IMG/VR virus record: IMGVR_UViG_3300032093_000005
DNA: 64,000 nucleotides
Direction: 5' to 3' (one strand)
From: a virus
Lineage: Duplodnaviria; Caudoviricetes
Positions within the stretch are counted from its first letter, which is position 1; each line of letters begins with the position of its first letter. Positions 27,430 through 47,342 of this stretch are shown here, piece after piece. The notes under the pieces were generated by a model, which saw nothing but the letters and a program-made list of their open reading frames with translations, made no database searches and had not been told where the DNA came from. A program made the translations under genes and the position numbers.

Positions 27430-28134
27430 TTAGTCCTCTATTGTAATTGTAGGGGGGAGATTAAAATGAAAACCAAATGGGATTAATCCTTGATTTTCTG
27501 GAATTGCTGTTTCATATGAAAATCTTGCAGCAATTTCAACTGAAGGAAACTTACATCCTTCTTCAATAAACATATGTCTATTGTGTACGCAAATGTTTCC
27601 ATCTTCTGCAAAGTTATTTGCGTTAAAGTGCTTGTAGAAATCTCCAGTGGTGCAATTAAAAGGTATTTCTCTTTTCAAAGGAACCTCCAGAAGTTTTTTA
27701 CTTCTCAAAGAGAATCCACCATTTCCAACTCTAATGTGTTCACCAAATGGAGTTACATAAGAGTTTTCTTGATATGGCCAAGGAGCACCAATATAATCAT
27801 ATTCATAAAACTCATCAGACCATGCATCTGGATTAATAATAAAAGCATGATCATGAACCATCAAACAATAATCTTTATCTATATGTCTGTGAAGTTCATA
27901 TAAACAATACTTACTATACTCATCAATATTAGTAATTGGAAAAACCATTTCCTCTATTACAATACCATCATCCAATAGAGAATCATGATATTGATCTTTT
28001 ATTTTTTTTGATGTAATAAGTTTTACTGAACCAAATTTTGCTTGTTCAATACAAGTGAAAATTGCTTTGATAGTTCCACTTACTCTGGATGTATTGTCTA
28101 CAGCAACTAAAGTTACTCTGGATAAATCAAGCAT
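27430..28134 (-). CDS. DUF5672-like putative glycosyltransferase
   Basis: YDYIGAPW..VGNGGFSLRSKKLL..ED. Confidence 0.7.
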   Translation of the reverse strand: MLDLSRVTLVAVDNTSRVSGTIKAIFTCIEQAKFGSVKLITSKKIKDQYHDSLLDDGIVIEEMVFPITNIDEYSKYCLYELHRHIDKDYCLMVHDHAFIINPDAWSDEFYEYDYIGAPWPYQENSYVTPFGEHIRVGNGGFSLRSKKLLEVPLKREIPFNCTTGDFYKHFNANNFAEDGNICVHNRHMFIEEGCKFPSVEIAARFSYETAIPENQGLIPFGFHFNLPPTITIED

Positions 28135-29428
28135 TGATAAACAAATCAACTACACTTTCAATATAATCAATCATATTCTGATTAATTGTTGGAGAGCATC
28201 CAAGAAAGAATACTTTATTCAAAACTTGGTTTGCTTTTGGATATTTAGTTGCATCATCAAGGTGACTATATCCAGGATGGAGAAGAACGTTTCCTGCAAA
28301 ATAATTACGAGTTTGAATCTTATTACTTTCCAAATGAGCAACAAGAGTTCTCTTTAGATCTTTATCTTCACATACAATAGGAACACCAAACCAACTTGTT
28401 TCTGCACCTTCACGTTCATTAACAACTCGGGTTCCAGGAATTTTCTCAATAATCTTTTGAATTTTTTCTTTATTACTTCTACGCAGTTGATGAATTTCTT
28501 CAAACTTTTGAAGTTGAATTAACCCAACAGCACCTTGCATATCAAGAGGTTTGAGATTATATCCCATAGTTGAAAAAACATACTTATGATCAACTATGTC
28601 TTCGTAGTTTTCTAACCAAGTATCAAAACGTTTTCCACAAACACCATTAGAAAGAAGATTTTGCTGACCAACACAATAACATCCACGACCCCACCAAGCA
28701 AAACTACGAGCAAGGTCAATAATTCCTTTTTCATTTGAAGAAACCATACCTCCTTCCATCGTGCAAATGTGATGTGCAGGATAGAATGAGCAGGAAGCAG
28801 CAACTGCATAATCAGTCAGATAATTACCATGCCACTTGCTTCCAAGACTATCACAGTTATCTGCAATCAAAGCAATACTCTTGCGGCGGCAAAGATCAAC
28901 GAACTTGTTCATGTTGTAGGGATTGCCAAGAACAGGCGATGAAATGGCACCAACAGTTCTTTCAGTAATTTTGTTCTCAACCTGATCCAAATCCCAGTTA
29001 AGATCTTCCCAATCAATATCAACAAAAACAGGTTTCAAACCACACTGAACAATTGGTGCAATTGTAGTAACGAATCCACATGCACACACAATAATTTCAT
29101 CACCATCTTTCCACCCAAAATACTTTTTGAGTGCAGCGAACATTACAAGGTTGGCAGAACTTCCAGAGTTCACCATCACAGAATGCTTGAAGTTGAACTT
29201 CTTTGAGAACTCACGCTCAAACTTATTAACTTGCTCACCAGAAGAAAGCCACTTTCCTTTCATAGTGGAGTGAATAAGTTCCCTAACCTCCAGGTCATCC
29301 CAGTAGGGACCAGAATAATATACATTATCTTCACCACCAACAAACTCTTTTTTATTTGCTAGATATGGGAATACATCCTTATCCACTTCTTTGGCAGATT
29401 GAATAAAACTGTCAATTAGGTCGTACAT
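28127..29428 (-). CDS. rfbH: RfbH/DdhC-like CDP-4-keto-6-deoxyglucose 3-dehydrase (DegT family)
   Basis: VNSGSSANL, DNCDSLGS, SFYPAHH replacing the Lys site, MGYNLKP. Confidence 0.85.
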   Translation of the reverse strand: MYDLIDSFIQSAKEVDKDVFPYLANKKEFVGGEDNVYYSGPYWDDLEVRELIHSTMKGKWLSSGEQVNKFEREFSKKFNFKHSVMVNSGSSANLVMFAALKKYFGWKDGDEIIVCACGFVTTIAPIVQCGLKPVFVDIDWEDLNWDLDQVENKITERTVGAISSPVLGNPYNMNKFVDLCRRKSIALIADNCDSLGSKWHGNYLTDYAVAASCSFYPAHHICTMEGGMVSSNEKGIIDLARSFAWWGRGCYCVGQQNLLSNGVCGKRFDTWLENYEDIVDHKYVFSTMGYNLKPLDMQGAVGLIQLQKFEEIHQLRRSNKEKIQKIIEKIPGTRVVNEREGAETSWFGVPIVCEDKDLKRTLVAHLESNKIQTRNYFAGNVLLHPGYSHLDDATKYPKANQVLNKVFFLGCSPTINQNMIDYIESVVDLFINA

Positions 29429-33934: not shown

Positions 33935-34778
33935 ACTCCTCCTTCATCGCATTAAAGACTTTTGAAATTCCTTCTTGAATAGATGTTTTTGGCATCCACC
34001 ATTTCATAATAAAAGTATCTGCTTGATTTCTTTTGTCTAATTGAACAGAATCCTTTTCTTCTGATGGTTTAACTATAACATCATGATTTCCAATCAAAGA
34101 AAACTGCCCATTGATCATACTTGCAATATCTCTAATTTTCGTATAGTGAAAACTAGTAATATGAAGATTGTCTTCTGGAGTAAAATCAGTGAAATTTTCC
34201 ATTACCGTTTCAAGTGCTTCGCAGCAATCTTCAGCATAGAGAAAATCACGTTGTTCTTCACCATCAGTAAGCATATCAATTACACCAGTTTCAAATCCTT
34301 TACGAATGAAGTCTGTAATAACATGTGCCTTCTCATGATTTTTTTCAATACCATAGACATTCCAGAACTTAACAATCAGTCCGTTCAAAGATTTTGTATA
34401 AAGTTCTCCAACATTTTTCAAAACACCATATGGAGAGTAACTCATATTACTCATTTGAGACGATGCAAATACAAATCTCACATTATATTTCTGGAGAAGA
34501 GTAAATGCATTTGCCATCAAACGACAATTGTTATTAATAAACTGGAAAGTATGTTGATACTTTTTCAGATATCGTGATCCACCCACATCAAAAGCAAGGA
34601 AAAATACAAAGTCAGAATCAGAAATTCTTTCTTCCAAAAGAGGATTTGGAATAGTTGTCATGTCTTCATCTGAGGTATTCACCAAATCAAATTCATGAAC
34701 TTGATGTCCCTTGTTACGCAAATACTCCGTCAGATAAGCACCGATTTGCCCACTGGAACCCAATACTGTAATTTTCAT
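33921..34778 (-). CDS. NAD-dependent epimerase/dehydratase
   Basis: GSSGQIG, YGVLK, KFWNVYG. Confidence 0.85.
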   Translation of the reverse strand: MKITVLGSSGQIGAYLTEYLRNKGHQVHEFDLVNTSDEDMTTIPNPLLEERISDSDFVFFLAFDVGGSRYLKKYQHTFQFINNNCRLMANAFTLLQKYNVRFVFASSQMSNMSYSPYGVLKNVGELYTKSLNGLIVKFWNVYGIEKNHEKAHVITDFIRKGFETGVIDMLTDGEEQRDFLYAEDCCEALETVMENFTDFTPEDNLHITSFHYTKIRDIASMINGQFSLIGNHDVIVKPSEEKDSVQLDKRNQADTFIMKWWMPKTSIQEGISKVFNAMKEEYESN

Positions 34779-40231: not shown

Positions 40232-40307
40232 TCGGAGTATTCGGATTTGAACCGAAATTATTCCTGCTCCCAAAGCAGGTGCCATGACCAAGTTAGGCGA
40301 TACTCCG
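40232..40307 (-). tRNA. tRNA-Pro(TGG)
   Basis: Cloverleaf; CCTGC-TTTGGGA-GCAGG; no encoded CCA. Confidence 0.92.
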
Positions 40308-40649
40308 TAGTTCCAACTCACCAGAATGAACTGCTGCGTGGCAACAAGCACATAATAGCACACATCCCTTTATTTCGTCAAGAATGCGTTCGTGACTCCA
40401 TCCACGAATCCCATGAAATTTAGCATCTTTTTGAGAAGGGTCTAAGTGATGAACTTGAAGTGCTGATGAATATTTATCATATCCACAAGAAACACATTTA
40501 CCTCCCATTTCTTCTATAATAAAACTTCTTTTTTTCTGCCCCAACTCTAATCTATATTTGTTATGGCAGGCACCACATACTGATTTTTTATGTCCATAAA
40601 ATTTAGATGGGTCGGTTTCTCCACAATGCCCACATTTATGCGTTCTCAT
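40293..40649 (-). CDS. HNH endonuclease; stop codon inside tRNA-Pro
   Basis: GGKCVSCGY..HHLDP..LLCACCH; ATAAATA plus hairpin leader. Confidence 0.88.
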   Translation of the reverse strand: MRTHKCGHCGETDPSKFYGHKKSVCGACHNKYRLELGQKKRSFIIEEMGGKCVSCGYDKYSSALQVHHLDPSQKDAKFHGIRGWSHERILDEIKGCVLLCACCHAAVHSGELELRSIA

Positions 40650-40674
40650 TTTGGTAGAATAAGTTTATCTACCA

Positions 40675-40824
40675 TTATTTATGTTTTTTGTCAAGCGGTT
40701 CCCAGTGCTGCCAGTTGTATTTATGAATTGCCCAGATACCCATAATCGGTGGAACAATCAAAAGATAACAAATAATTCCCAAAGTAAAAGGAGTTTCTAA
40801 TACCCACCTTGAAAAATGTAACAT
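40675..40824 (-). CDS. Small membrane protein MLHFSRWVLETP (49 aa)
   Basis: Hand translation; coupled to the upstream stop. Confidence 0.6.
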   Translation of the reverse strand: MLHFSRWVLETPFTLGIICYLLIVPPIMGIWAIHKYNWQHWEPLDKKHK

Positions 40825-41021
40825 CAATATCCTCTCCAAGTTTTAAACTCATAATAAAAATACTGATCAACAATCCAATTATCTAATGGAGCATTCTCTT
40901 CTCTTTGTGCCCATTCAATACAAAAATCTACAATCTTATGATCATTCAATGATTTGTGCCCCCACATTCTTACAAATGCAGAGGCTGCAAAGTGATATTT
41001 TTGTTTAATGTGCGGTCCCAT
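40824..41021 (-). CDS. Hypothetical protein (65 aa)
   Basis: ORF-track frame with start moved to limit overlap with ndhP. Confidence 0.55.
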   Translation of the reverse strand: MGPHIKQKYHFAASAFVRMWGHKSLNDHKIVDFCIEWAQREENAPLDNWIVDQYFYYEFKTWRGY

Positions 41022-41127
41022 TTCCCTTATAATCTTTGGAGTCATAATATCCTCCTCGTGTTCCGAAGTAGAGTGTTGATAAAACAAACGGGATTGAAAC
41101 GAATAGAAGTGCTTTTGCTAATAACAT
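41005..41127 (-). CDS. ndhP: NDH-1 subunit NdhP (40 aa)
   Basis: Hand translation MLLAKALLFVSIPFVLSTLYFGTRGGYYDSKDYKGNGTAH; FGTR.G.YD...Y.GNG.AH signature. Confidence 0.85.
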   Translation of the reverse strand: MLLAKALLFVSIPFVLSTLYFGTRGGYYDSKDYKGNGTAH

Positions 41128-41294
41128 TATAAAAACATTCCTGGTTTATAATCTACTATTTGTTGAATCTCATCAAGTAGTGCTCCATACTCTTTAAACT
41201 TTCTATCTCCTGCAATAAAATGTCTTTGTCTTATCCAAACAGCATCTGCAAGTAGTTTCAGTTCATACTCCGATAAATCTTTAAAACGTTCCAT
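41127..41294 (-). CDS. Small hypothetical protein MERFKDLSEYELKLL (55 aa)
   Basis: Hand translation; RBS; TAATG coupling to ndhP. Confidence 0.65.
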   Translation of the reverse strand: MERFKDLSEYELKLLADAVWIRQRHFIAGDRKFKEYGALLDEIQQIVDYKPGMFL

Positions 41295-41306
41295 TGTAAA
41301 TCTCCT

Positions 41307-42329
41307 TTATCTAACGTGATGACCACCAAACATATAACGCATCCCGTTCAAGATTTTTGCTCCGAATGATCCGAGATTGCGTGAGTTAAATCTTTCAAAT
41401 AGGGCAGTAGTAATGACAGGAGCGGGAACCCCCAAATCCACAGCGGCAGAAACAGTCCAACGACCCTCACCGCTATCGGAAACTCCACCAGAGAAGCGTT
41501 TAAGGCTACCATCCCTGCGTAGCACATCAGCAGTAAGATCAAGTAACCAACTACCAACCACGCTACCACGACGCCATAACTCAGCAACCTCAGCAACATC
41601 AATATCGTAGCAATAGGATTCTGGGTCTGCCATTGGTGCAACTTCTGCGTCTCCTTCTCTGACATACTGAGCACCTAGATTAGCGTTCTTCAAAATATTG
41701 AATCCTTCTGCATATGCCTGCATAATGCCATATTCAATTCCATTGTGAACCATTTTTACAAAGTGTCCTGCACCAGGGCCACCACAATGCAACCAACCAA
41801 ACTCCGCAGAGGTTACGTCCGAGTCAAACTGAGTCCTCGGGGCAGCGGTGATTCCTGGAGCGAGGGCATCAAAAATCCTTGCACAAGTGGCGACCGCAGT
41901 ATTTCCGCCACCAACCATAAGACAGTATCCACGATCCAAACCATAAACACCACCGCTAGTGCCACAATCAATATATTGGATACCAAGTTTTGCCAGGCGT
42001 TCTGCTCTTTTCCGACTGTCTTTAAAATTGCTATTGCCATGATCAATAATAATATCTCCTTCACCACAATATCGTAGTAACTCATTGATTGTCTCCTCTA
42101 CTGTTTCTGCAGGAACAACCATTTGGAAGATACCTGGTTGTTTTCCATCTTTTACTATTTGAACAAGGCTTTGTATAGAAGTTGTAACACCATTAACATA
42201 TCCGTTTTCATATGCTTCTTGTGCCTTTTCATAATTTCTTCTGTATCCCCAAACTTCTATACCTGCTTTCATCATACGGCGAGACATACCTTCGCCCATT
42301 CTTCCAAGTCCAATTAATCCTACTTTCAT
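41307..42329 (-). CDS. gnd: 6-phosphogluconate dehydrogenase (short type)
   Basis: GLGRMG, IDHGNS, GTSGG, KMVHNGIEYG, DSGEGRW. Confidence 0.97.
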   Translation of the reverse strand: MKVGLIGLGRMGEGMSRRMMKAGIEVWGYRRNYEKAQEAYENGYVNGVTTSIQSLVQIVKDGKQPGIFQMVVPAETVEETINELLRYCGEGDIIIDHGNSNFKDSRKRAERLAKLGIQYIDCGTSGGVYGLDRGYCLMVGGGNTAVATCARIFDALAPGITAAPRTQFDSDVTSAEFGWLHCGGPGAGHFVKMVHNGIEYGIMQAYAEGFNILKNANLGAQYVREGDAEVAPMADPESYCYDIDVAEVAELWRRGSVVGSWLLDLTADVLRRDGSLKRFSGGVSDSGEGRWTVSAAVDLGVPAPVITTALFERFNSRNLGSFGAKILNGMRYMFGGHHVR

Positions 42330-42337
42330 ATATTCTC

Positions 42338-42430
42338 CTATTGTGGATATGCGTTGTTAAGTCCCCATACAACAAAAAATCCAATCGTACCAAAAATAGT
42401 TAATGCGCTAAAAAGTAAATTAGTATTCAT
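42338..42430 (-). CDS. NdhQ-like small membrane protein (30 aa)
   Basis: Hand translation MNTNLLFSALTIFGTIGFFVVWGLNNAYPQ; ungapped match to recalled NdhQ SAVLILGFIAGLIWWALHTAY. Confidence 0.55.
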   Translation of the reverse strand: MNTNLLFSALTIFGTIGFFVVWGLNNAYPQ

Positions 42431-42533
42431 CATCATCCTCATAAGTTGATGGTTCTTCAAATAGTTCATCTAACTTTTGCTGTAAAACTCTTTCTTGAAG
42501 TTCTTGTAGGTCTTTGTCTGTTAAAACTATCAT
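42420..42533 (-). CDS. Small acidic protein MIVLTDKDLQELQ (37 aa)
   Basis: Hand translation, operon packing. Confidence 0.55.
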   Translation of the reverse strand: MIVLTDKDLQELQERVLQQKLDELFEEPSTYEDDDEY

Positions 42534-42709
42534 TTGTCCTTTAATAGTTCCTCCACTCTTTTACGCATATTAGTACTATCTTGTTTGAGATAATCCCTCA
42601 AAGAATAACCACGCCGTCCACGCATAATACAAGTGCCTTGATAAAACATCGTGGCAGCAAACACCAACAGAAAAGCAATGCCAATTATTTCAGAGTAATG
42701 TTGAGCCAT
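42530..42709 (-). CDS. Small membrane protein MAQHYSEIIG (59 aa)
   Basis: Hand translation, ATGA coupling. Confidence 0.55.
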   Translation of the reverse strand: MAQHYSEIIGIAFLLVFAATMFYQGTCIMRGRRGYSLRDYLKQDSTNMRKRVEELLKDK

Positions 42710-42888
42710 GGAAGCAATGGTGGGATAACTCCAATCAACCTTAAAAGTCCCTCAGCAAATAAAGCAAGAACCACCCAACCGACGCACATACTAATGATGC
42801 TAGCATTACGGTTGTGTCGTCGTATTGCTGCATCGATCATCTCCTTAACTTCGGAACGGGTTACATAATCATCATCAAAAGGTTCCAT
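42685..42888 (-). CDS. Hypothetical membrane protein (67 aa)
   Basis: ORF track. Confidence 0.65.
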   Translation of the reverse strand: MEPFDDDYVTRSEVKEMIDAAIRRHNRNASIISMCVGWVVLALFAEGLLRLIGVIPPLLPWLNITLK

Positions 42889-43037
42889 CATTTCTCATCT
42901 CCAAGAAACTTCGCAAGAGGATCTCTCCTCGTTTTGACTATTTCAACTGCTCTCTTGTAGAACATATTATCTGTGTTCCCAGAGGCTTCAAAAGTTTCCT
43001 TGATCTTCACCCAATTGTCGTAGGTGTGCTGATCCAT
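42888..43037 (-). CDS. Small hypothetical protein MDQHTYDNWVKIK (49 aa)
   Basis: Hand translation; promoter-like TTGACA upstream. Confidence 0.6.
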   Translation of the reverse strand: MDQHTYDNWVKIKETFEASGNTDNMFYKRAVEIVKTRRDPLAKFLGDEK

Positions 43038-43151
43038 AAGGTTTAAGGTTGAATACTACTAGTTATACTAGTGAGTATTTTTAAACTGTCAAGTTTGTGT
43101 TGATACAAAAATATAGATTAAGAGAATCTAAAATTTTGTAATATTTCTAAA

Positions 43152-43234
43152 CGGAGAGAACAGGAATCGAACCTGCGAAGCTTTTAAACCCAGCCGCTTT
43201 CAAGGCGGTGTCCTCGACCAACCGGACTCTCTCC
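43152..43234 (-). tRNA. tRNA-Ser(TGA)
   Basis: Cloverleaf with long variable arm, loop CTTGAAA, G73. Confidence 0.9.
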
Positions 43235-43244
43235 AAATAAGTCC

Positions 43245-43502
43245 TCAACGGACTTCAAAATCTAATCGTTTAACTTTACGTTGACGACGTGCTTCTTGCC
43301 ACTGAATATCTTCATTGGTAAGAACACTAGATTTTGTTTTTGTATGATAAGAGTTTAGCATAACAACATTAGATAAGTCAACTGCTGAGATCTTATCACC
43401 ACGAATAGTCGCCATATTTGGACAACCACATGTTACAGTTTTACTATGATACCCTTCTAACTCCCTACCACAGGAGCGGCATCTGATTCTTAAGTTTTCC
43501 AT
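43245..43502 (-). CDS. Hypothetical zinc-ribbon protein (85 aa)
   Basis: CxxC..CxCxN. Confidence 0.65.
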   Translation of the reverse strand: MENLRIRCRSCGRELEGYHSKTVTCGCPNMATIRGDKISAVDLSNVVMLNSYHTKTKSSVLTNEDIQWQEARRQRKVKRLDFEVR

Positions 43503-43521
43503 TGTATTATAAGTTTAATTT

Positions 43522-43956
43522 TTATTCAGTAAATGATCTCAAAAACCAAACAAACTTTCCGTGTGCCTCATTGAGATCATCAAGTAAATTTGTTGTACCT
43601 CTTGAATTAAGTTCTTCTGCGATCTTTGCTGCTTCTCCAAACATTTCAATTATTGTAGTATGACATTTCAAGAGATCTTTAATCATCTCCATTTCAGAGA
43701 GACCACTTTTTGCTTCTGATACTCTGGATACTTCTGCAACTCTTGAGAGAGCACTAACTGGTTTAGCACCAAGAAATCTCATATGCTCGGAGATTCTATC
43801 AATCTCTTCAAAGAGTGCAGTATATTGCTCACCAAACATTGTATGAACTTGATAGAAATCAGGTCCAGTAATATGCCAATGATATACCCAAGTCTTTTGG
43901 AAAAGTACAAAAAGACTTGCTTGAGTATCAGAAAGTATTTTATATAGTTTTTCCAT
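43522..43956 (-). CDS. dps: Dps-family ferritin-like protein
   Basis: HWHITGPDFYQVH..EQY..IDRISEH ferroxidase residues; HGKFVWFL. Confidence 0.92.
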   Translation of the reverse strand: MEKLYKILSDTQASLFVLFQKTWVYHWHITGPDFYQVHTMFGEQYTALFEEIDRISEHMRFLGAKPVSALSRVAEVSRVSEAKSGLSEMEMIKDLLKCHTTIIEMFGEAAKIAEELNSRGTTNLLDDLNEAHGKFVWFLRSFTE

Positions 43957-43983
43957 TATACCATATTTTTTAGGTATTTATAA

Positions 43984-44056
43984 TGGGCAATCGCAGATTC
44001 GAACTGCGGACTTTCTGCGTGTAAAGCAGACACTCTAACCGCTGAGTTAATCGCCC
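43984..44056 (-). tRNA. tRNA-Val(TAC)
   Basis: Canonical cloverleaf. Confidence 0.95.
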
Positions 44057-44062
44057 AAGAAA

Positions 44063-44227
44063 TTAAATCTTGGTCATCATATATTCTACGGTATTTGCTA
44101 CATCATTCATAGCATCCCGTAGATTTTCCCGTTGACCCGACTCCTGCCTAACGACTGGGCGATGATCATCGGTTAAAGTCCAACGCCACTGTTTCATATC
44201 AGAGCAATACCAAAGATTAATTTTCAT
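44063..44227 (-). CDS. Small hypothetical protein MKINLWYCSDMKQWRW (54 aa)
   Basis: Hand translation. Confidence 0.6.
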   Translation of the reverse strand: MKINLWYCSDMKQWRWTLTDDHRPVVRQESGQRENLRDAMNDVANTVEYMMTKI

Positions 44228-44387
44228 TCTTCTGATATTCTAGTTTAATCCAGTTTAGAAGAGCATTGACTTCCATAGAAGAATGATGTGGTTCTCCAAG
44301 ATAATACTCAGTTGTTGCTACATCAGCAGCATACTTTTCAAGTGCTGCAATAGCGACTTCTCTATCACGTTGGGAAATAAGAGACAT
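44217..44387 (-). CDS. Small hypothetical protein MSLISQRDRE (56 aa)
   Basis: Hand translation; AGGAGG RBS; promoter upstream. Confidence 0.65.
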   Translation of the reverse strand: MSLISQRDREVAIAALEKYAADVATTEYYLGEPHHSSMEVNALLNWIKLEYQKNEN

Positions 44388-44464
44388 AAACCTCCTAACT
44401 CGTTATCTATAATACACTAAAAAGGGGGTCTTGTCAACCCCCAATTTACACTATGTAGGAATTA

Positions 44465-45982
44465 TCAGAACGTAAACTTCGTCTGAATCACACCACCATA
44501 GTTGGAAGATGCACCAGCAAATGCCTGATTGTTAGAGGCATAGAACACTGCAGGAGTTACAGTGATATTGTCGGACACCTTATACTTGTAGAAGACTTCC
44601 CACATCGTTGCATCCTTATCCAGTCCTTCCGCGTTACCAGGTTGACCGATGGCGAAACCAGCAGAGTTACCCTTAGCAAACACATTAGACCACTGGAGAC
44701 CAGCATACCAAGTCTGTGAATCGGTAGCACCAGCAGGAGTTGCCTGACCTGCTGCATCCAGACTTACGGTGTTCCAACCATAACCAGCACTCACAGAAGG
44801 AATGATACCAGAAGTCTTGGGTTGCCAATAAGCACTCAGGGCATAACCATTAGAGGTTTGTCCAGGAGCAAGGGCACCAGACTTACCAGCAAGTGCGTTG
44901 AAAGTACGAACACGAGTACCTTCAGTACCATAACGGTAACCGAATGCAGCACCCCACTGAGGAGCACGATAACCAATTTGCGCCAGAGTATTCAGAGCAC
45001 CAGATTCGTTGAACTCACCTTTGGTGGAATCACCACCATTTTGAGCAACATAGTTCACACCAGCAACGAAACCACCTTTACCTTTCTTGGTAGGTTGTGC
45101 CCACTGAGCACCGAAACCAGCACCAGTTGCTTTGTTATAAACACCAGGAGCACCAGCAAGTTGGAAGAAATCAAGGATTTCAGACTTATATGCGGTAGGA
45201 ACCCAAGTCATCTCAGTGTTGCGAACCAGAGCACCAGCAGTCAGAGTTACACCCTTAGCAAGTGCAGGGAACTGGTAGTAAAGGCGGTCAAGAGTAACTG
45301 CGTTTGCAGTGCTCTCTGCCTTATCCAGTTTGAACAGGGAAGAAGATGAACCGAAGGGTTGACTGGAGAAGTTACCCGAACGCAGACGAGTGCGGAGCAG
45401 GTCTTTACCAGTGAACGAAGTATCAAAGTTCAGACGGAGATCGTAGTTGAATGCAGTGTTACCAACATTCGTGCTAGCAGGAGCCTTGGAAGTACCAGGA
45501 GTCCAAGCATTATCTACACCACCAAGAACAAAGTTTACTTCACCTTTCAGTTTAGTGGTAGTAGAGAAACGGGTTGCTTCCAGAGCACCCACTTTTGCTT
45601 CCAGAGTAGATACACGACCACGAATCACGGCAAGTTCATCAGAGAACTCGTTAGCAAGACGCTTCAGTTCATCAGTAACTTCAGTCACACGGTCAAGGCA
45701 AGCATTCAGAAGTGCTGCTGCCTCATAACGGGACATTGCCTTACCACCAGCAAAAGTGCCGTTGGGGTAACCAGCAACGCAACCATAACGCTCTACAAGG
45801 TTGCTGAGTGCCTGATATGCCCAATCAGTGGGTTGCACATCAGAAAGTTGTGAGACACTTGTAACCTGCTCAGTGGAAGAGTACTGGTTGACTGCTGCCA
45901 TATTAAGGTCTGCGGCATTCGCAGCAACAGGAGCAACCATTCCCAGAGCAACAGGTGCAAGCATCAGTTGTTTGAGTTTCAT
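44465..45982 (-). CDS. Cyanobacterial outer-membrane porin (SLH plus OprB-like barrel, SomA/B type)
   Basis: Signal peptide, SDVQPTDWAYQAL SLH motif, FSTTTKLKGEV, terminal QTKFTF. Confidence 0.93.
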   Translation of the reverse strand: MKLKQLMLAPVALGMVAPVAANAADLNMAAVNQYSSTEQVTSVSQLSDVQPTDWAYQALSNLVERYGCVAGYPNGTFAGGKAMSRYEAAALLNACLDRVTEVTDELKRLANEFSDELAVIRGRVSTLEAKVGALEATRFSTTTKLKGEVNFVLGGVDNAWTPGTSKAPASTNVGNTAFNYDLRLNFDTSFTGKDLLRTRLRSGNFSSQPFGSSSSLFKLDKAESTANAVTLDRLYYQFPALAKGVTLTAGALVRNTEMTWVPTAYKSEILDFFQLAGAPGVYNKATGAGFGAQWAQPTKKGKGGFVAGVNYVAQNGGDSTKGEFNESGALNTLAQIGYRAPQWGAAFGYRYGTEGTRVRTFNALAGKSGALAPGQTSNGYALSAYWQPKTSGIIPSVSAGYGWNTVSLDAAGQATPAGATDSQTWYAGLQWSNVFAKGNSAGFAIGQPGNAEGLDKDATMWEVFYKYKVSDNITVTPAVFYASNNQAFAGASSNYGGVIQTKFTF

Positions 45983-46177
45983 AAAGATTTGTTTTTAGTA
46001 CTAAACGACATGGTACTTCAGGGTTATTTAAACCCTTTGTATATGGGTCACATAATTGGTGCGAGTAGTTGGGGCACCAATTATGCAAGGTTATTTAGAG
46101 AATCTTAAGCAAAACTTAAGTTCGAGGATTATCATAGTATAGTTTTGTTCTTCTGTCAACTAAGGTTTCTTTAAGAA

Positions 46178-46249
46178 AGCGGAGTATCGGATTCGAACCG
46201 ACGACGAACTGCTTGGAAGGCAGCCATTCTACCACTGAATTAACTCCGC
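46178..46249 (-). tRNA. tRNA-Gly(TCC)
   Basis: Canonical cloverleaf, U73. Confidence 0.95.
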
Positions 46250-46326
46250 AAATGATGGAGGATTTCTCCTCCATGCACACTTCCTTCACACAAAAGAAAG
46301 TATAAGACATAAAGAGTATTATGTCA

Positions 46327-46398
46327 AGCCCCCGACAAGATTCGAACTTGCGACCAGCGGTTTACAAAACCGCTGCTCTACCACTGAGCTACAAGGGC
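46327..46398 (-). tRNA. tRNA-Thr(TGT)
   Basis: Canonical cloverleaf. Confidence 0.95.
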
Positions 46399-46401
46399 AA
46401 A

Positions 46402-46502
46402 TGGGTAACGAGTGCCCGTCACCCGCAGGAGACACTTCCTGCAAGTTTCACTGCATTAGAGGGCAGTGAATAAAACGTTTCTAATAGCCTCTCTTACCTC
46501 CC
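46402..46502 (-). ncRNA. Unassigned structured RNA (three hairpins, complementary loops)
   Basis: Stems at 46447-46470, 46425-46442 and 46403-46424. Confidence 0.6.
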
Positions 46503-46505
46503 ATA

Positions 46506-46599
46506 AGGAAGATGTAGGTATCGAACCTACAAAAGACAGTCCCTAAGAACTGCTGGGAATTCCACCCAGAACGTAGTTTAGAAGAACCAAAGTCCTTCC
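46506..46599 (-). ncRNA. Non-canonical tRNA-like RNA (94 nt)
   Basis: GTAGG-TTCGATA-CCTAC T-arm, GGAAGG/TCTTCC closing stem, 5-bp/7-nt arm, long variable-arm-like hairpin. Confidence 0.6.
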
Positions 46600-46601
46600 A
46601 A

Positions 46602-46674
46602 CTGGGGCGGCAGGGATCGAACCTGCGACCTAGATGTTAACAGCATCCCGCTACTACCGCTGAGCTACACCCCA
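46602..46674 (-). tRNA. tRNA-Asn(GTT)
   Basis: Canonical cloverleaf, G73. Confidence 0.93.
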
Positions 46675-46967
46675 TTATGTTGTTCGTGATGTATTTCTCT
46701 ATGGCAATTAGCACACACAAGAATACATTTATCTGCTTCTGCTTTTTGTTTTTCTATGGCAGCGGTGGTTCCAAGATTTTTTGTTTCTTTGGTAGTGGGA
46801 TCAAGATGATGAAACTCTAATGCAGAAATGCATTTATTGTAACCACATCTTTCACACTTACCACCTTTATATTCTACTAGAAGAAGTTTGTTTTGCTTGC
46901 GTCTTTTAATGACACTTGCTTTATTTGCTTCTCTACGATCAGCATAGGTTCTGGTTTCCTTAGTCAT
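46665..46967 (-). CDS. HNH endonuclease; stop codon inside tRNA-Asn
   Basis: GGKCERCGY..HHLDP..LVCANCHREIH; TATAAATA plus hairpin leader. Confidence 0.88.
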   Translation of the reverse strand: MTKETRTYADRREANKASVIKRRKQNKLLLVEYKGGKCERCGYNKCISALEFHHLDPTTKETKNLGTTAAIEKQKAEADKCILVCANCHREIHHEQHNGV

Positions 46968-47014
46968 AAGGTAGAAGTTTTATTGTTCTACCATTATTTA
47001 TAAGGGAATAAATG

Positions 47015-47091
47015 TGCCGTTGTGGGGGAATCGAACCCCTACTTCTCCAACTCCCTTGTCGGGGTGTCCTGACCACTAGACTACCAACGGC
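47015..47091 (-). ncRNA. tRNA-like RNA or pseudo-tRNA with aberrant anticodon arm
   Basis: GCCGTTG/CAACGGC acceptor, Glu/Asp-type D arm, GGGG-TTCGATT-CCCC T arm, 5-nt loop GACAA. Confidence 0.65.
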
Positions 47092-47172: not shown

Positions 47173-47175
47173 AAG

Positions 47176-47249
47176 CGGGTTAGGAGGGACTCGAACCCCC
47201 GACCAACAAATTAGAAGTTTGTGGCTCTATCCATCTGAGCTACTAACCC
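47176..47249 (-). tRNA. tRNA-Arg(TCT)
   Basis: Canonical cloverleaf. Confidence 0.95.
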
Positions 47250-47342
47250 AAGAGACCTCCTGGTTTGTGCATCGTTGAGAGGCATAGGAGGGGCGGGACT
47301 TATAGGAGGGTTGGAACCTCGCCTGCCCATGAGAATATTATA

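Follow-up and report, generated by a model that had tools for sequence, protein, structure and literature searches.

Two HNH endonuclease genes of a T4-like freshwater cyanophage, here called HNH1 and HNH2, take their stop codons from the transfer RNA (tRNA) genes that directly follow them. They are read here, with moderate confidence, as free-standing homing cassettes docked flush at tRNA 5' ends, for which the shared stop codon is a tolerated by-product and the tRNA a fail-safe stop. The window analyzed, a stretch of 64,000 nucleotides (nt), is part of a 96.5-kb IMG/VR viral contig (IMGVR_UViG_3300032093_000005) whose gene content (gnd, a Dps/ferritin gene, an SLH-OprB porin gene, and seven minus-strand tRNAs) marks it as a T4-like cyanomyovirus. 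Among named phages the closest is S-SRM01, a freshwater Synechococcus phage (about 80% nucleotide identity), with which the window shares the tRNA order Pro-Ser-Val-Gly-Thr-Asn-Arg.

Both genes and both tRNAs lie on the minus strand. HNH1 (40649..40293, stop codon included) encodes 118 amino acids (aa) and reaches 15 nt into tRNA-Pro(UGG) (40307..40232; called by ARAGORN): tRNA positions 1-15 (40307-40293) double as the last four sense codons of HNH1 (RSIA) and its TAA stop (40295-40293), which is tRNA positions 13-15. HNH2 (46967..46665, stop codon included; 100 aa) reaches 10 nt into tRNA-Asn(GUU) (46674..46602; called by ARAGORN and confirmed by Rfam), of which positions 1-10 (46674-46665) supply the third base of an Asn codon, a Gly codon, a Val codon, and the TAG stop (46667-46665), the last falling on positions 8-10 (U8-A9-G10). 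A first-pass annotation of this DNA had placed both stops at these tRNA positions, and ARAGORN, the coordinates of the open reading frames (ORFs), and direct reading of the sequence agree with it. Its further claims, that the two genes are related through a shared core (GGKCxxCGYxK...HHLDP) and carry the same late-promoter leader (ATAAATAATGGTAGA...TCTACC), were likewise borne out: the core is common to both proteins, which are 35% identical (BLASTP, E 6e-18) and both match PHROG 2255, “HNH endonuclease” (E 4e-24 for HNH1 and 2e-26 for HNH2), and both leaders hold the leader sequence, its promoter motif being exact in HNH2 and one mismatch off in HNH1.

An alignment of 22 sequences revealed an invariant CxxC...HH...CxxCH...H pattern, comprising the histidines of an HNH beta-beta-alpha-metal fold (H67 and H68, H104, and H108) and the two CxxC pairs of a structural zinc site (C52, C55, C100, and C103). 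Only HNH2 matched the Pfam HNH model (22.6 bits; cut-off, 21.4); searches of Pfam and of PDB sequences with HNH1 gave nothing significant, and an NCBIfam search of the HNH proteins gave nothing useful. The top PDB matches found by Foldseek for an AlphaFold model (predicted local distance difference test score, 87.8) were all HNH nucleases (Cap5, McrA, Gme HNH, and Cas9 HNH), each of them weak (E 0.017 or weaker). The genes are under purifying selection, with ratios of nonsynonymous to synonymous substitution rates (dN/dS) of about 0.085 (Asn lineage) and 0.12 (Pro lineage, median). HNH1 and HNH2 are read as putative free-standing homing-endonuclease cassettes of one phage family, PHROG 2255, a reading favored by their anatomy, distribution, and selection.

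At each site the genes are sporadically present and absent among close relatives, the pattern of homing genes. S-SRM01 carries the same tRNAs without either HNH gene: at its Asn site the shared spacer continues straight into tRNA-Asn, and at its Pro site the similarity starts exactly at tRNA +1. Two further loci, L189 and L214, show the arrangement of the window minus the HNH gene, with 8 nt separating a tRNA-like gene from tRNA-Asn. Among 66 usable viral contigs holding an exact 35-nt piece of the tRNA-Asn body, 20 had the HNH gene and 46 did not; for the tRNA-Pro body, 19 had HNH1-type genes and 92 lacked them. Many of these HNH1-less tRNA-Pro loci have instead a 38-aa membrane-protein ORF ending flush with tRNA +1, a homologue of the small membrane-protein ORF that lies upstream of cassette 1 in the window (40675..40839, minus strand). 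In several others, this slot is taken, in the same frame, by a second HNH lineage. The first-pass proposal of a tRNA-homing cassette family is thus well supported by identical tRNAs with and without the HNH gene, the many tRNA species involved, the leader, and purifying selection.

Some HNH-less alleles retain parts of a leader (L165, L192, and L200 at tRNA-Asn; L283 and L289 at tRNA-Pro), either a portion of TATAAATA or the promoter-like motif together with the 5' arm of the hairpin described below. These remnants resemble scars left when a nuclease gene was deleted, and the “CTTATAA” retained by L165 would fit a deletion between short ATAA repeats. Direct repeats were also considered as a signature of insertion: a 7-nt ATAATGG flanks cassette 2 and was rejected because it is absent at cassette 1 and in other lineages and consists largely of promoter and tRNA start.

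The polymorphism could in principle involve more than the nuclease gene. If the mobile unit were a composite of the HNH gene and its downstream tRNA, the latter being a useful passenger or a replacement copy, the weld between them would simply be the interior of one inserting block. The HNH-tRNA junction is indeed invariant where the upstream context varies: the 5' flank of tRNA-Asn falls into more than 10 contexts, and HNH-bearing alleles, with the same HNH-tRNA-Asn block, occur in at least five of them. However, the 3' flank of tRNA-Asn is mostly constant and is therefore not a cassette boundary, the same tRNA-Asn and tRNA-Pro sequences also occur without the HNH gene in the same and in other contexts, and neither cassette is flanked by orphan tRNA halves in the window. 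HNH2-type genes that are nearly identical adjoin at least seven divergent alleles of tRNA-Asn; in L004 and L005 the HNH proteins are 96 to 97% identical and both flanks are shared, yet the tRNA-Asn alleles are very different, so that nuclease and tRNA do not form one fixed unit. Likewise, one cluster of at least 80% identity keeps its upstream tRNA-Arg while its downstream tRNA varies among Gly, Val, Asn, and Thr. Given the constant 3' flank and the tRNA swap between L004 and L005, the composite unit was mostly rejected and is considered quite improbable.

The cassettes sit at a mosaic boundary, with adjoining tRNA alleles swapped, and this shuffling of tRNA alleles and upstream contexts, along with dN/dS values of about 0.09 to 0.12, is what might be seen if the nucleases had been domesticated, either because their breaks promote exchange or amplification of tRNA genes (e.g., in escape from host anticodon or tRNA nucleases) or because their late promoter boosts the downstream tRNA. 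Amplifying a tRNA-Tyr segment overcomes Septu defence, and SegB was shown to drive this amplification (PMC13096335); moreover, each cassette necessarily cotranscribes its tRNA from the late promoter. Against such a role, most contigs with the same tRNAs are HNH-less (46/66 and 92/111) and some show the apparent deletion scars, a pattern that a cycle of gain and loss fits better, and no tandem amplification of a tRNA segment was seen in the window. We give domestication very little credence as the explanation of these genes, although it does not exclude, and is compatible with, a flush-docked homing cassette.

The sharing of stop codons extends well beyond the window. The overlap was kept in 26/26 close HNH2 relatives that still have a tRNA at the locus and in 34/36 HNH1 relatives. 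Our survey covered 160 loci with homologues, forming 64 clusters at 80% identity, of which about 36 have a same-strand tRNA just downstream; these tRNAs belong to at least 12 species (Asn, Pro, Val, Arg, Gly, Lys, Leu, Asp, Thr, Ile, Ala, and Gln). About 20 clusters stop within the tRNA, mostly at positions 8-10 (U8-A9-R10), and about 10 more stop 0 to 7 nt before tRNA +1. A tRNA-Arg(UCU) gene is a recurrent upstream neighbor, ending 37 to 49 nt before the ATG in at least 15 loci, so the cassette usually fills an inter-tRNA spacer; in the window this tRNA (47175..47249, minus strand) lies 208 nt before the ATG of HNH2.

That the overlap exceeds chance is clear from unique ORF-tRNA junctions in about 340 related viral loci (ORFs of at least 60 aa, crossing no other tRNA). 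The ORF ended inside the tRNA at 67/80 HNH junctions versus 14/154 junctions of other ORFs (Fisher p 4e-31), a comparison in which the control ORFs are not an unbiased set, the loci having been sampled through HNH homologues and the two tRNAs. Counted by unit of family and tRNA, the overlap was found in 20/28 HNH units versus 11/67 others (p 4e-7), and at least 4 of the 11 overlapping units outside the family are other HNH subfamilies. Phage tRNAs lend themselves to such use: a stop triplet stands at positions 8-10 in 44% of 1148 unique phage tRNAs, and in 45% of them an ORF that reads in on that frame meets a stop no later than position 10, versus 6% and 18% in the other two frames. The frames in use are therefore those that add the fewest residues.

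A shared stop of this kind might also be a selected governor of expression, the reading that follows from the inference of the first-pass annotation that tRNA maturation and trans-translation limit these genes. Ribonuclease P (RNase P), cutting at tRNA +1, would remove the stop codon, ribosomes stalled on the resulting mRNA would be rescued by transfer-messenger RNA (tmRNA), and the tagged nuclease would be degraded; active enzyme would then come only from the first ribosomes on nascent, unprocessed RNA, which would shield a phage whose own tRNA genes are potential targets. If RNase P cuts, loss of the stop is unavoidable, given that the stop lies 7 to 12 nt 3' of the site. In favor of selection, the overlap is 5 to 10 times commoner in HNH genes than in other tRNA-adjacent ORFs, the frames in use give the earliest stop, and the arrangement recurs in unrelated nuclease lineages and hosts (hegC and hegD of phage T5, ORF44 of phage Felix O1, and the second HNH lineage of the Pro slot). 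Moreover, the authors who described SegB of phage T4 argued that tight negative control is needed since T4 tRNA genes are cleavable, and proposed stop loss through tRNA-Arg processing.

Against a governor, the same lineages still include natural variants whose ORF has a stop of its own flush with +1. The triplet just before +1 is TAA in L109 and L119 but CAA in L110, whose ORF continues to the TAA of the tRNA; in the second HNH lineage of the Pro slot, L314 has TAA and L310 has GAA before +1. The own-stop forms L109/L119 and L314 thus differ from their overlapping relatives at a single base. A quick tree implied at least 15 switches between own-stop and tRNA-stop states, a count that is a rough minimum only because the proteins are short. 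In L069 the ORF is shifted by one base and runs on to tRNA position 21. Ordinary ORFs use the same tRNA stops, namely, members of the NDVANTVEY family (ending NGV*), a 133-aa ORF on tRNA-Arg, and a 160-aa ORF on tRNA-Pro. A stop that abuts +1, or that lies 5 nt upstream as in T4 segB, escapes removal by RNase P, and the overlap is therefore not needed for persistence. These own-stop relatives, non-nuclease ORFs on the same stops, and frame-shifted ORFs that run on argue against the overlap being required or specially designed. The overlap, whose conservation among orthologues the first-pass annotation had proposed to survey, is kept in most close relatives and enriched but is not obligatory. 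That the shared stop was selected to lower nuclease yield is possible, with its enrichment in nucleases speaking for it and the own-stop variants and ordinary ORFs against it; as the explanation of the overlap, we regard the governor as doubtful.

Two side observations concern the ORFs and lineages just named. The small minus-strand ORFs 44063-44227 and 43245-43502 of the window end 5 and 7 nt before tRNA-Val and tRNA-Ser, respectively. In L173, L207, and L212, a homologue of the former (of the NDVANTVEY family) precedes tRNA-Asn instead, with either its own stop or a read-in that ends on U8-A9-G10; the tRNA that follows a given ORF thus varies between phages. The second HNH lineage (C terminus ...CANCHQIHH..) precedes tRNA-Pro in L339, L271, L310, and L314 and uses the same TAA at tRNA-Pro positions 13-15, except for the flush TAA of L314.

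The leaders of the two window genes have a common design, in which (T/C)ATAAATA is followed by a hairpin (GGUAGA...UCUACC) that ends at the start codon. In cassette 1, the late-promoter-like motif (40676..40683, minus strand) reads CATAAATA, one mismatch from the T4 motif TATAAATA, and contains the TAA stop (40677-40675) of the small membrane-protein ORF upstream; exact copies of TATAAATA are found in relatives such as L096. The hairpin of cassette 1 (40652..40674, minus strand; UGGUAGA/UCUACCA, 7 bp) ends 2 nt before the ATG. Cassette 2 has an exact TATAAATA (46995..47002, minus strand) and a hairpin (46966..46997, minus strand; AUAA.GGUAGAA / UUCUACCUUAU) in which the A and U of the start codon are base-paired as part of the 3' arm. 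Late transcripts of T4 begin six bases after the promoter motif, and the late start was set here by that spacing, taken from knowledge of T4. With the long leader, the hairpin of HNH1 has a folding energy of -8.5 kcal/mol (z -3.8), whereas the predicted late transcript has a different, weak fold (-1.7 kcal/mol); for HNH2, the values are -8.2 kcal/mol (z -3.1) and 0 kcal/mol, the predicted start (~46989) falling inside the 5' arm.

The same arrangement recurs across the family. With at most one mismatch, TATAAATA was present in 71% of unique leaders of tRNA-adjacent homologues versus 1.8% of shuffled leaders, its position peaking at -36 to -29 from the ATG, and the mean minimum free energy in this set was -11.4 kcal/mol for the long leader versus -0.85 kcal/mol for the predicted late transcript. 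The promoter is placed either just 5' of the 5' arm of the hairpin or within its loop, in keeping with a TATAAATA so set that the predicted late RNA loses the 5' arm and, with it, the hairpin that occludes the start. Among homologues, this leader position is filled by at least four stem sequences unrelated to one another; the HNH1 stem is conserved or covaries in relatives, and stems covary between lineages. All seven exact copies of TATAAATA in the window lie on the minus (coding) strand. One of them (43975-43982) stands directly 3' of tRNA-Val and before the Dps/ferritin-like ORF 43522-43956. A mini-ORF in the leader, starting at the ATG of “TAATGG,” was set aside, its length and end differing between cassettes 1 and 2. 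The assembled contigs of two freshwater metatranscriptome runs covered small shares of the region, and none of them bridged an HNH-tRNA junction.

Under the favored reading of flush-docked homing cassettes, each cassette would fill the short gap immediately before a phage tRNA gene and would consist of a T4-type late promoter, a hairpin burying the region of the start codon, and a compact HNH ORF. It would lack a terminator and, as a rule, its own stop codon. Since the cassette is docked flush with tRNA +1, the ORF would read a few codons into the tRNA and find its stop triplet at conserved positions, mostly U8-A9-G/A10 and, in tRNA-Pro, the TAA of the D-loop. Read-through transcripts from upstream would fold the hairpin and be poorly translated; late transcripts would begin inside or past its 5' arm and be translatable, as in I-TevI, mobE, and segB. 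The nuclease presumably cuts the HNH-less tRNA loci of coinfecting relatives and is then copied in by repair, which would make the tRNA 5' flank a recombination hot spot. As there is no room for a terminator, the late promoter would necessarily cotranscribe the tRNA. With the stop 3' of the RNase P site, any processed transcript would be stop-less, and as a side effect a cut at +1 would leave stop-less mRNAs that likely lower the yield of nuclease.

Several points weigh against this reading. Besides the sampling of the control ORFs noted above, the strong enrichment of the overlap in HNH genes could mean that it is selected rather than incidental. The promoter of HNH1 is near-consensus only (CATAAATA). 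Whether or not an allele carries the HNH gene, the 5' half of its tRNA is identical and the bases at positions -1 to -6 are similar and A/T-rich; it is therefore not evident how a carrier escapes cleavage of its own tRNA genes. Finally, we infer from sequence every functional claim made for the family, including nuclease activity and target, the transcription start sites, and RNase P cleavage with its effect on expression. Self-immunity through a target site that bridges the junction was considered and rejected, as the sequences upstream of empty sites vary too much, and resemble occupied junctions too closely, to support it.

Other features of the region lie around cassette 2 and among the tRNAs, all on the minus strand. 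The tRNA-like gene (47016..47090) is directly 5' of cassette 2, with its 3' end 48 nt before the ATG of HNH2; it scores 30.3 bits against the Rfam tRNA model (gathering score, 29) and received no ARAGORN call. In its homologue at the HNH-less loci L189 and L214, the acceptor and T stems have changed in compensatory fashion and the anticodon region is very different and abnormal, which suggests a conserved, nondecoding, tRNA-shaped RNA. Immediately 5' of tRNA-Arg(UCU), a full-length match to the Rfam abiF RNA motif was identified (47255-47291; 49.3 bits; gathering score, 37). Host-like genes among the tRNAs include one for 6-phosphogluconate dehydrogenase (41307-42329) and one for a full-length porin of SLH and OprB type (44465-45982); S-SRM01 has the porin gene but a different gene at the place of gnd.

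On the homing-cassette reading, a large and mobile HNH family has colonized the tRNA islands of T4-like cyanophages, much as SegB and the Heg genes have settled in those of T4 and T5, which helps explain the mosaic tRNA sets and flanks of these phages. We think it rather unlikely that stop-less cassettes are an evolved and general device, by which unrelated homing genes of phages (and bacteria) dock at +1 and use the near-universal U8-A9-R10 as their stop. If this were so, RNase P would turn every processed transcript into a nonstop mRNA and active nuclease would come only from nascent RNA, a built-in, host-enforced limit on the dose of an enzyme that also targets tRNA genes of the phage carrying it. 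For such a throttle, the survey yields natural pairs of own-stop and tRNA-stop alleles and cultured systems (S-WAM2, S-H38, Felix O1, and T5). It also shows that annotation misses or truncates ORFs that end in tRNAs, as two Synechococcus phage records illustrate. That of S-H38 (MW117965; L343 644-1009) has no coding sequence (CDS) for a 121-aa HNH ORF ending inside tRNA-Asn, and that of S-WAM2 (KU686211; L344 698-1009) has a CDS annotated from an internal ATG (755), which looks too short: a start at 698 (METRTYAE) follows the promoter and hairpin leader.

These two phages and Salmonella phage Felix O1 (ORF44) hold members of the same protein family (47 to 54% identity) in the same layout. The CDS of S-WAM2 extends 10 nt into tRNA-Asn, the ORF of S-H38 has its stop at positions 8-10 of tRNA-Asn, and the TGA of Felix O1 ORF44 is positions 5-7 of tRNA-Ile, an overlap not mentioned in the Felix O1 paper. 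Our literature searches found no paper on the systematic use of tRNA stop codons by the PHROG 2255-type HNH family. The regulatory idea is plausible and not new, having been proposed for analogous genes such as T4 segB.

The window genes share with T4 segB and T5 hegC and hegD a nuclease ORF that ends at or inside the next same-strand tRNA of a tRNA cluster; HNH2 has no detectable sequence similarity to HegC (BLASTP E 0.99) and SegB is a GIY-YIG enzyme, and the layouts are analogous but the proteins are not orthologous. Like HNH1 and HNH2, hegC (T5.064) and hegD (T5.061), of the F-TflI/II/IV group, are free-standing HNH genes on the tRNA strand that end inside the next tRNA, with the TAG of hegC at positions 12-14 of tRNA-Ser2 and the TAA of hegD at positions 21-23 of tRNA-Gln2. 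In contrast, the T5 proteins are about twice as long and have NUMOD-type domains according to their record notes, their genes lack the T4-type late promoter and hairpin leader, and their overlaps run deeper into the tRNA and not onto U8-A9-R10. Two hypothetical T5 genes not annotated as nucleases, T5.069 (34006-34524) and T5.057 (28108-28191), likewise share 24 nt and 6 nt with the 5' ends of tRNA-Asn and tRNA-Met, respectively (NC_005859; L346).

SegB resembles the window genes in its place within a tRNA cluster, its abutment on the downstream tRNA, its start-occluding hairpin, and its widespread association with tRNAs (PMC2330249, PMC13096335); that association, and the amplification of tRNA loci driven by SegB, were published in 2026 (PMC13096335). 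Lying between tRNA-Ile and tRNA-Arg and absent from relatives, it recognizes a conserved T-arm motif of tRNA genes (PMC2330249). It differs in its GIY-YIG fold and in its TAA, which the T4 record places 5 nt before tRNA-Arg +1, without overlap with the mature tRNA; moreover, the activity and homing of SegB are proven by experiment, whereas those of the window genes are predicted. Its authors proposed that maturation of tRNA-Arg cuts the segB mRNA between the last sense codon and the stop, and cited the endonucleases of the T5 tRNA region likewise (PMC2330249, 2008). They also faced the problem of self-cleavage, for which they invoked low expression (PMC2330249).

Control by promoter and hairpin has been published for I-TevI, I-TevII, I-TevIII, and Aeh1 mobE and suggested for segB (PMC2988022). 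In these systems, TATAAATA is placed as in the window and late transcripts lack the 5' arm of the hairpin, a comparison in which the window start sites are those predicted from the promoter motif. The hairpins of the window differ in covering the start codon and the A/T-rich region before it, without a clear Shine-Dalgarno sequence. As in the window, the device precedes homing endonuclease genes that are embedded in earlier transcription units.

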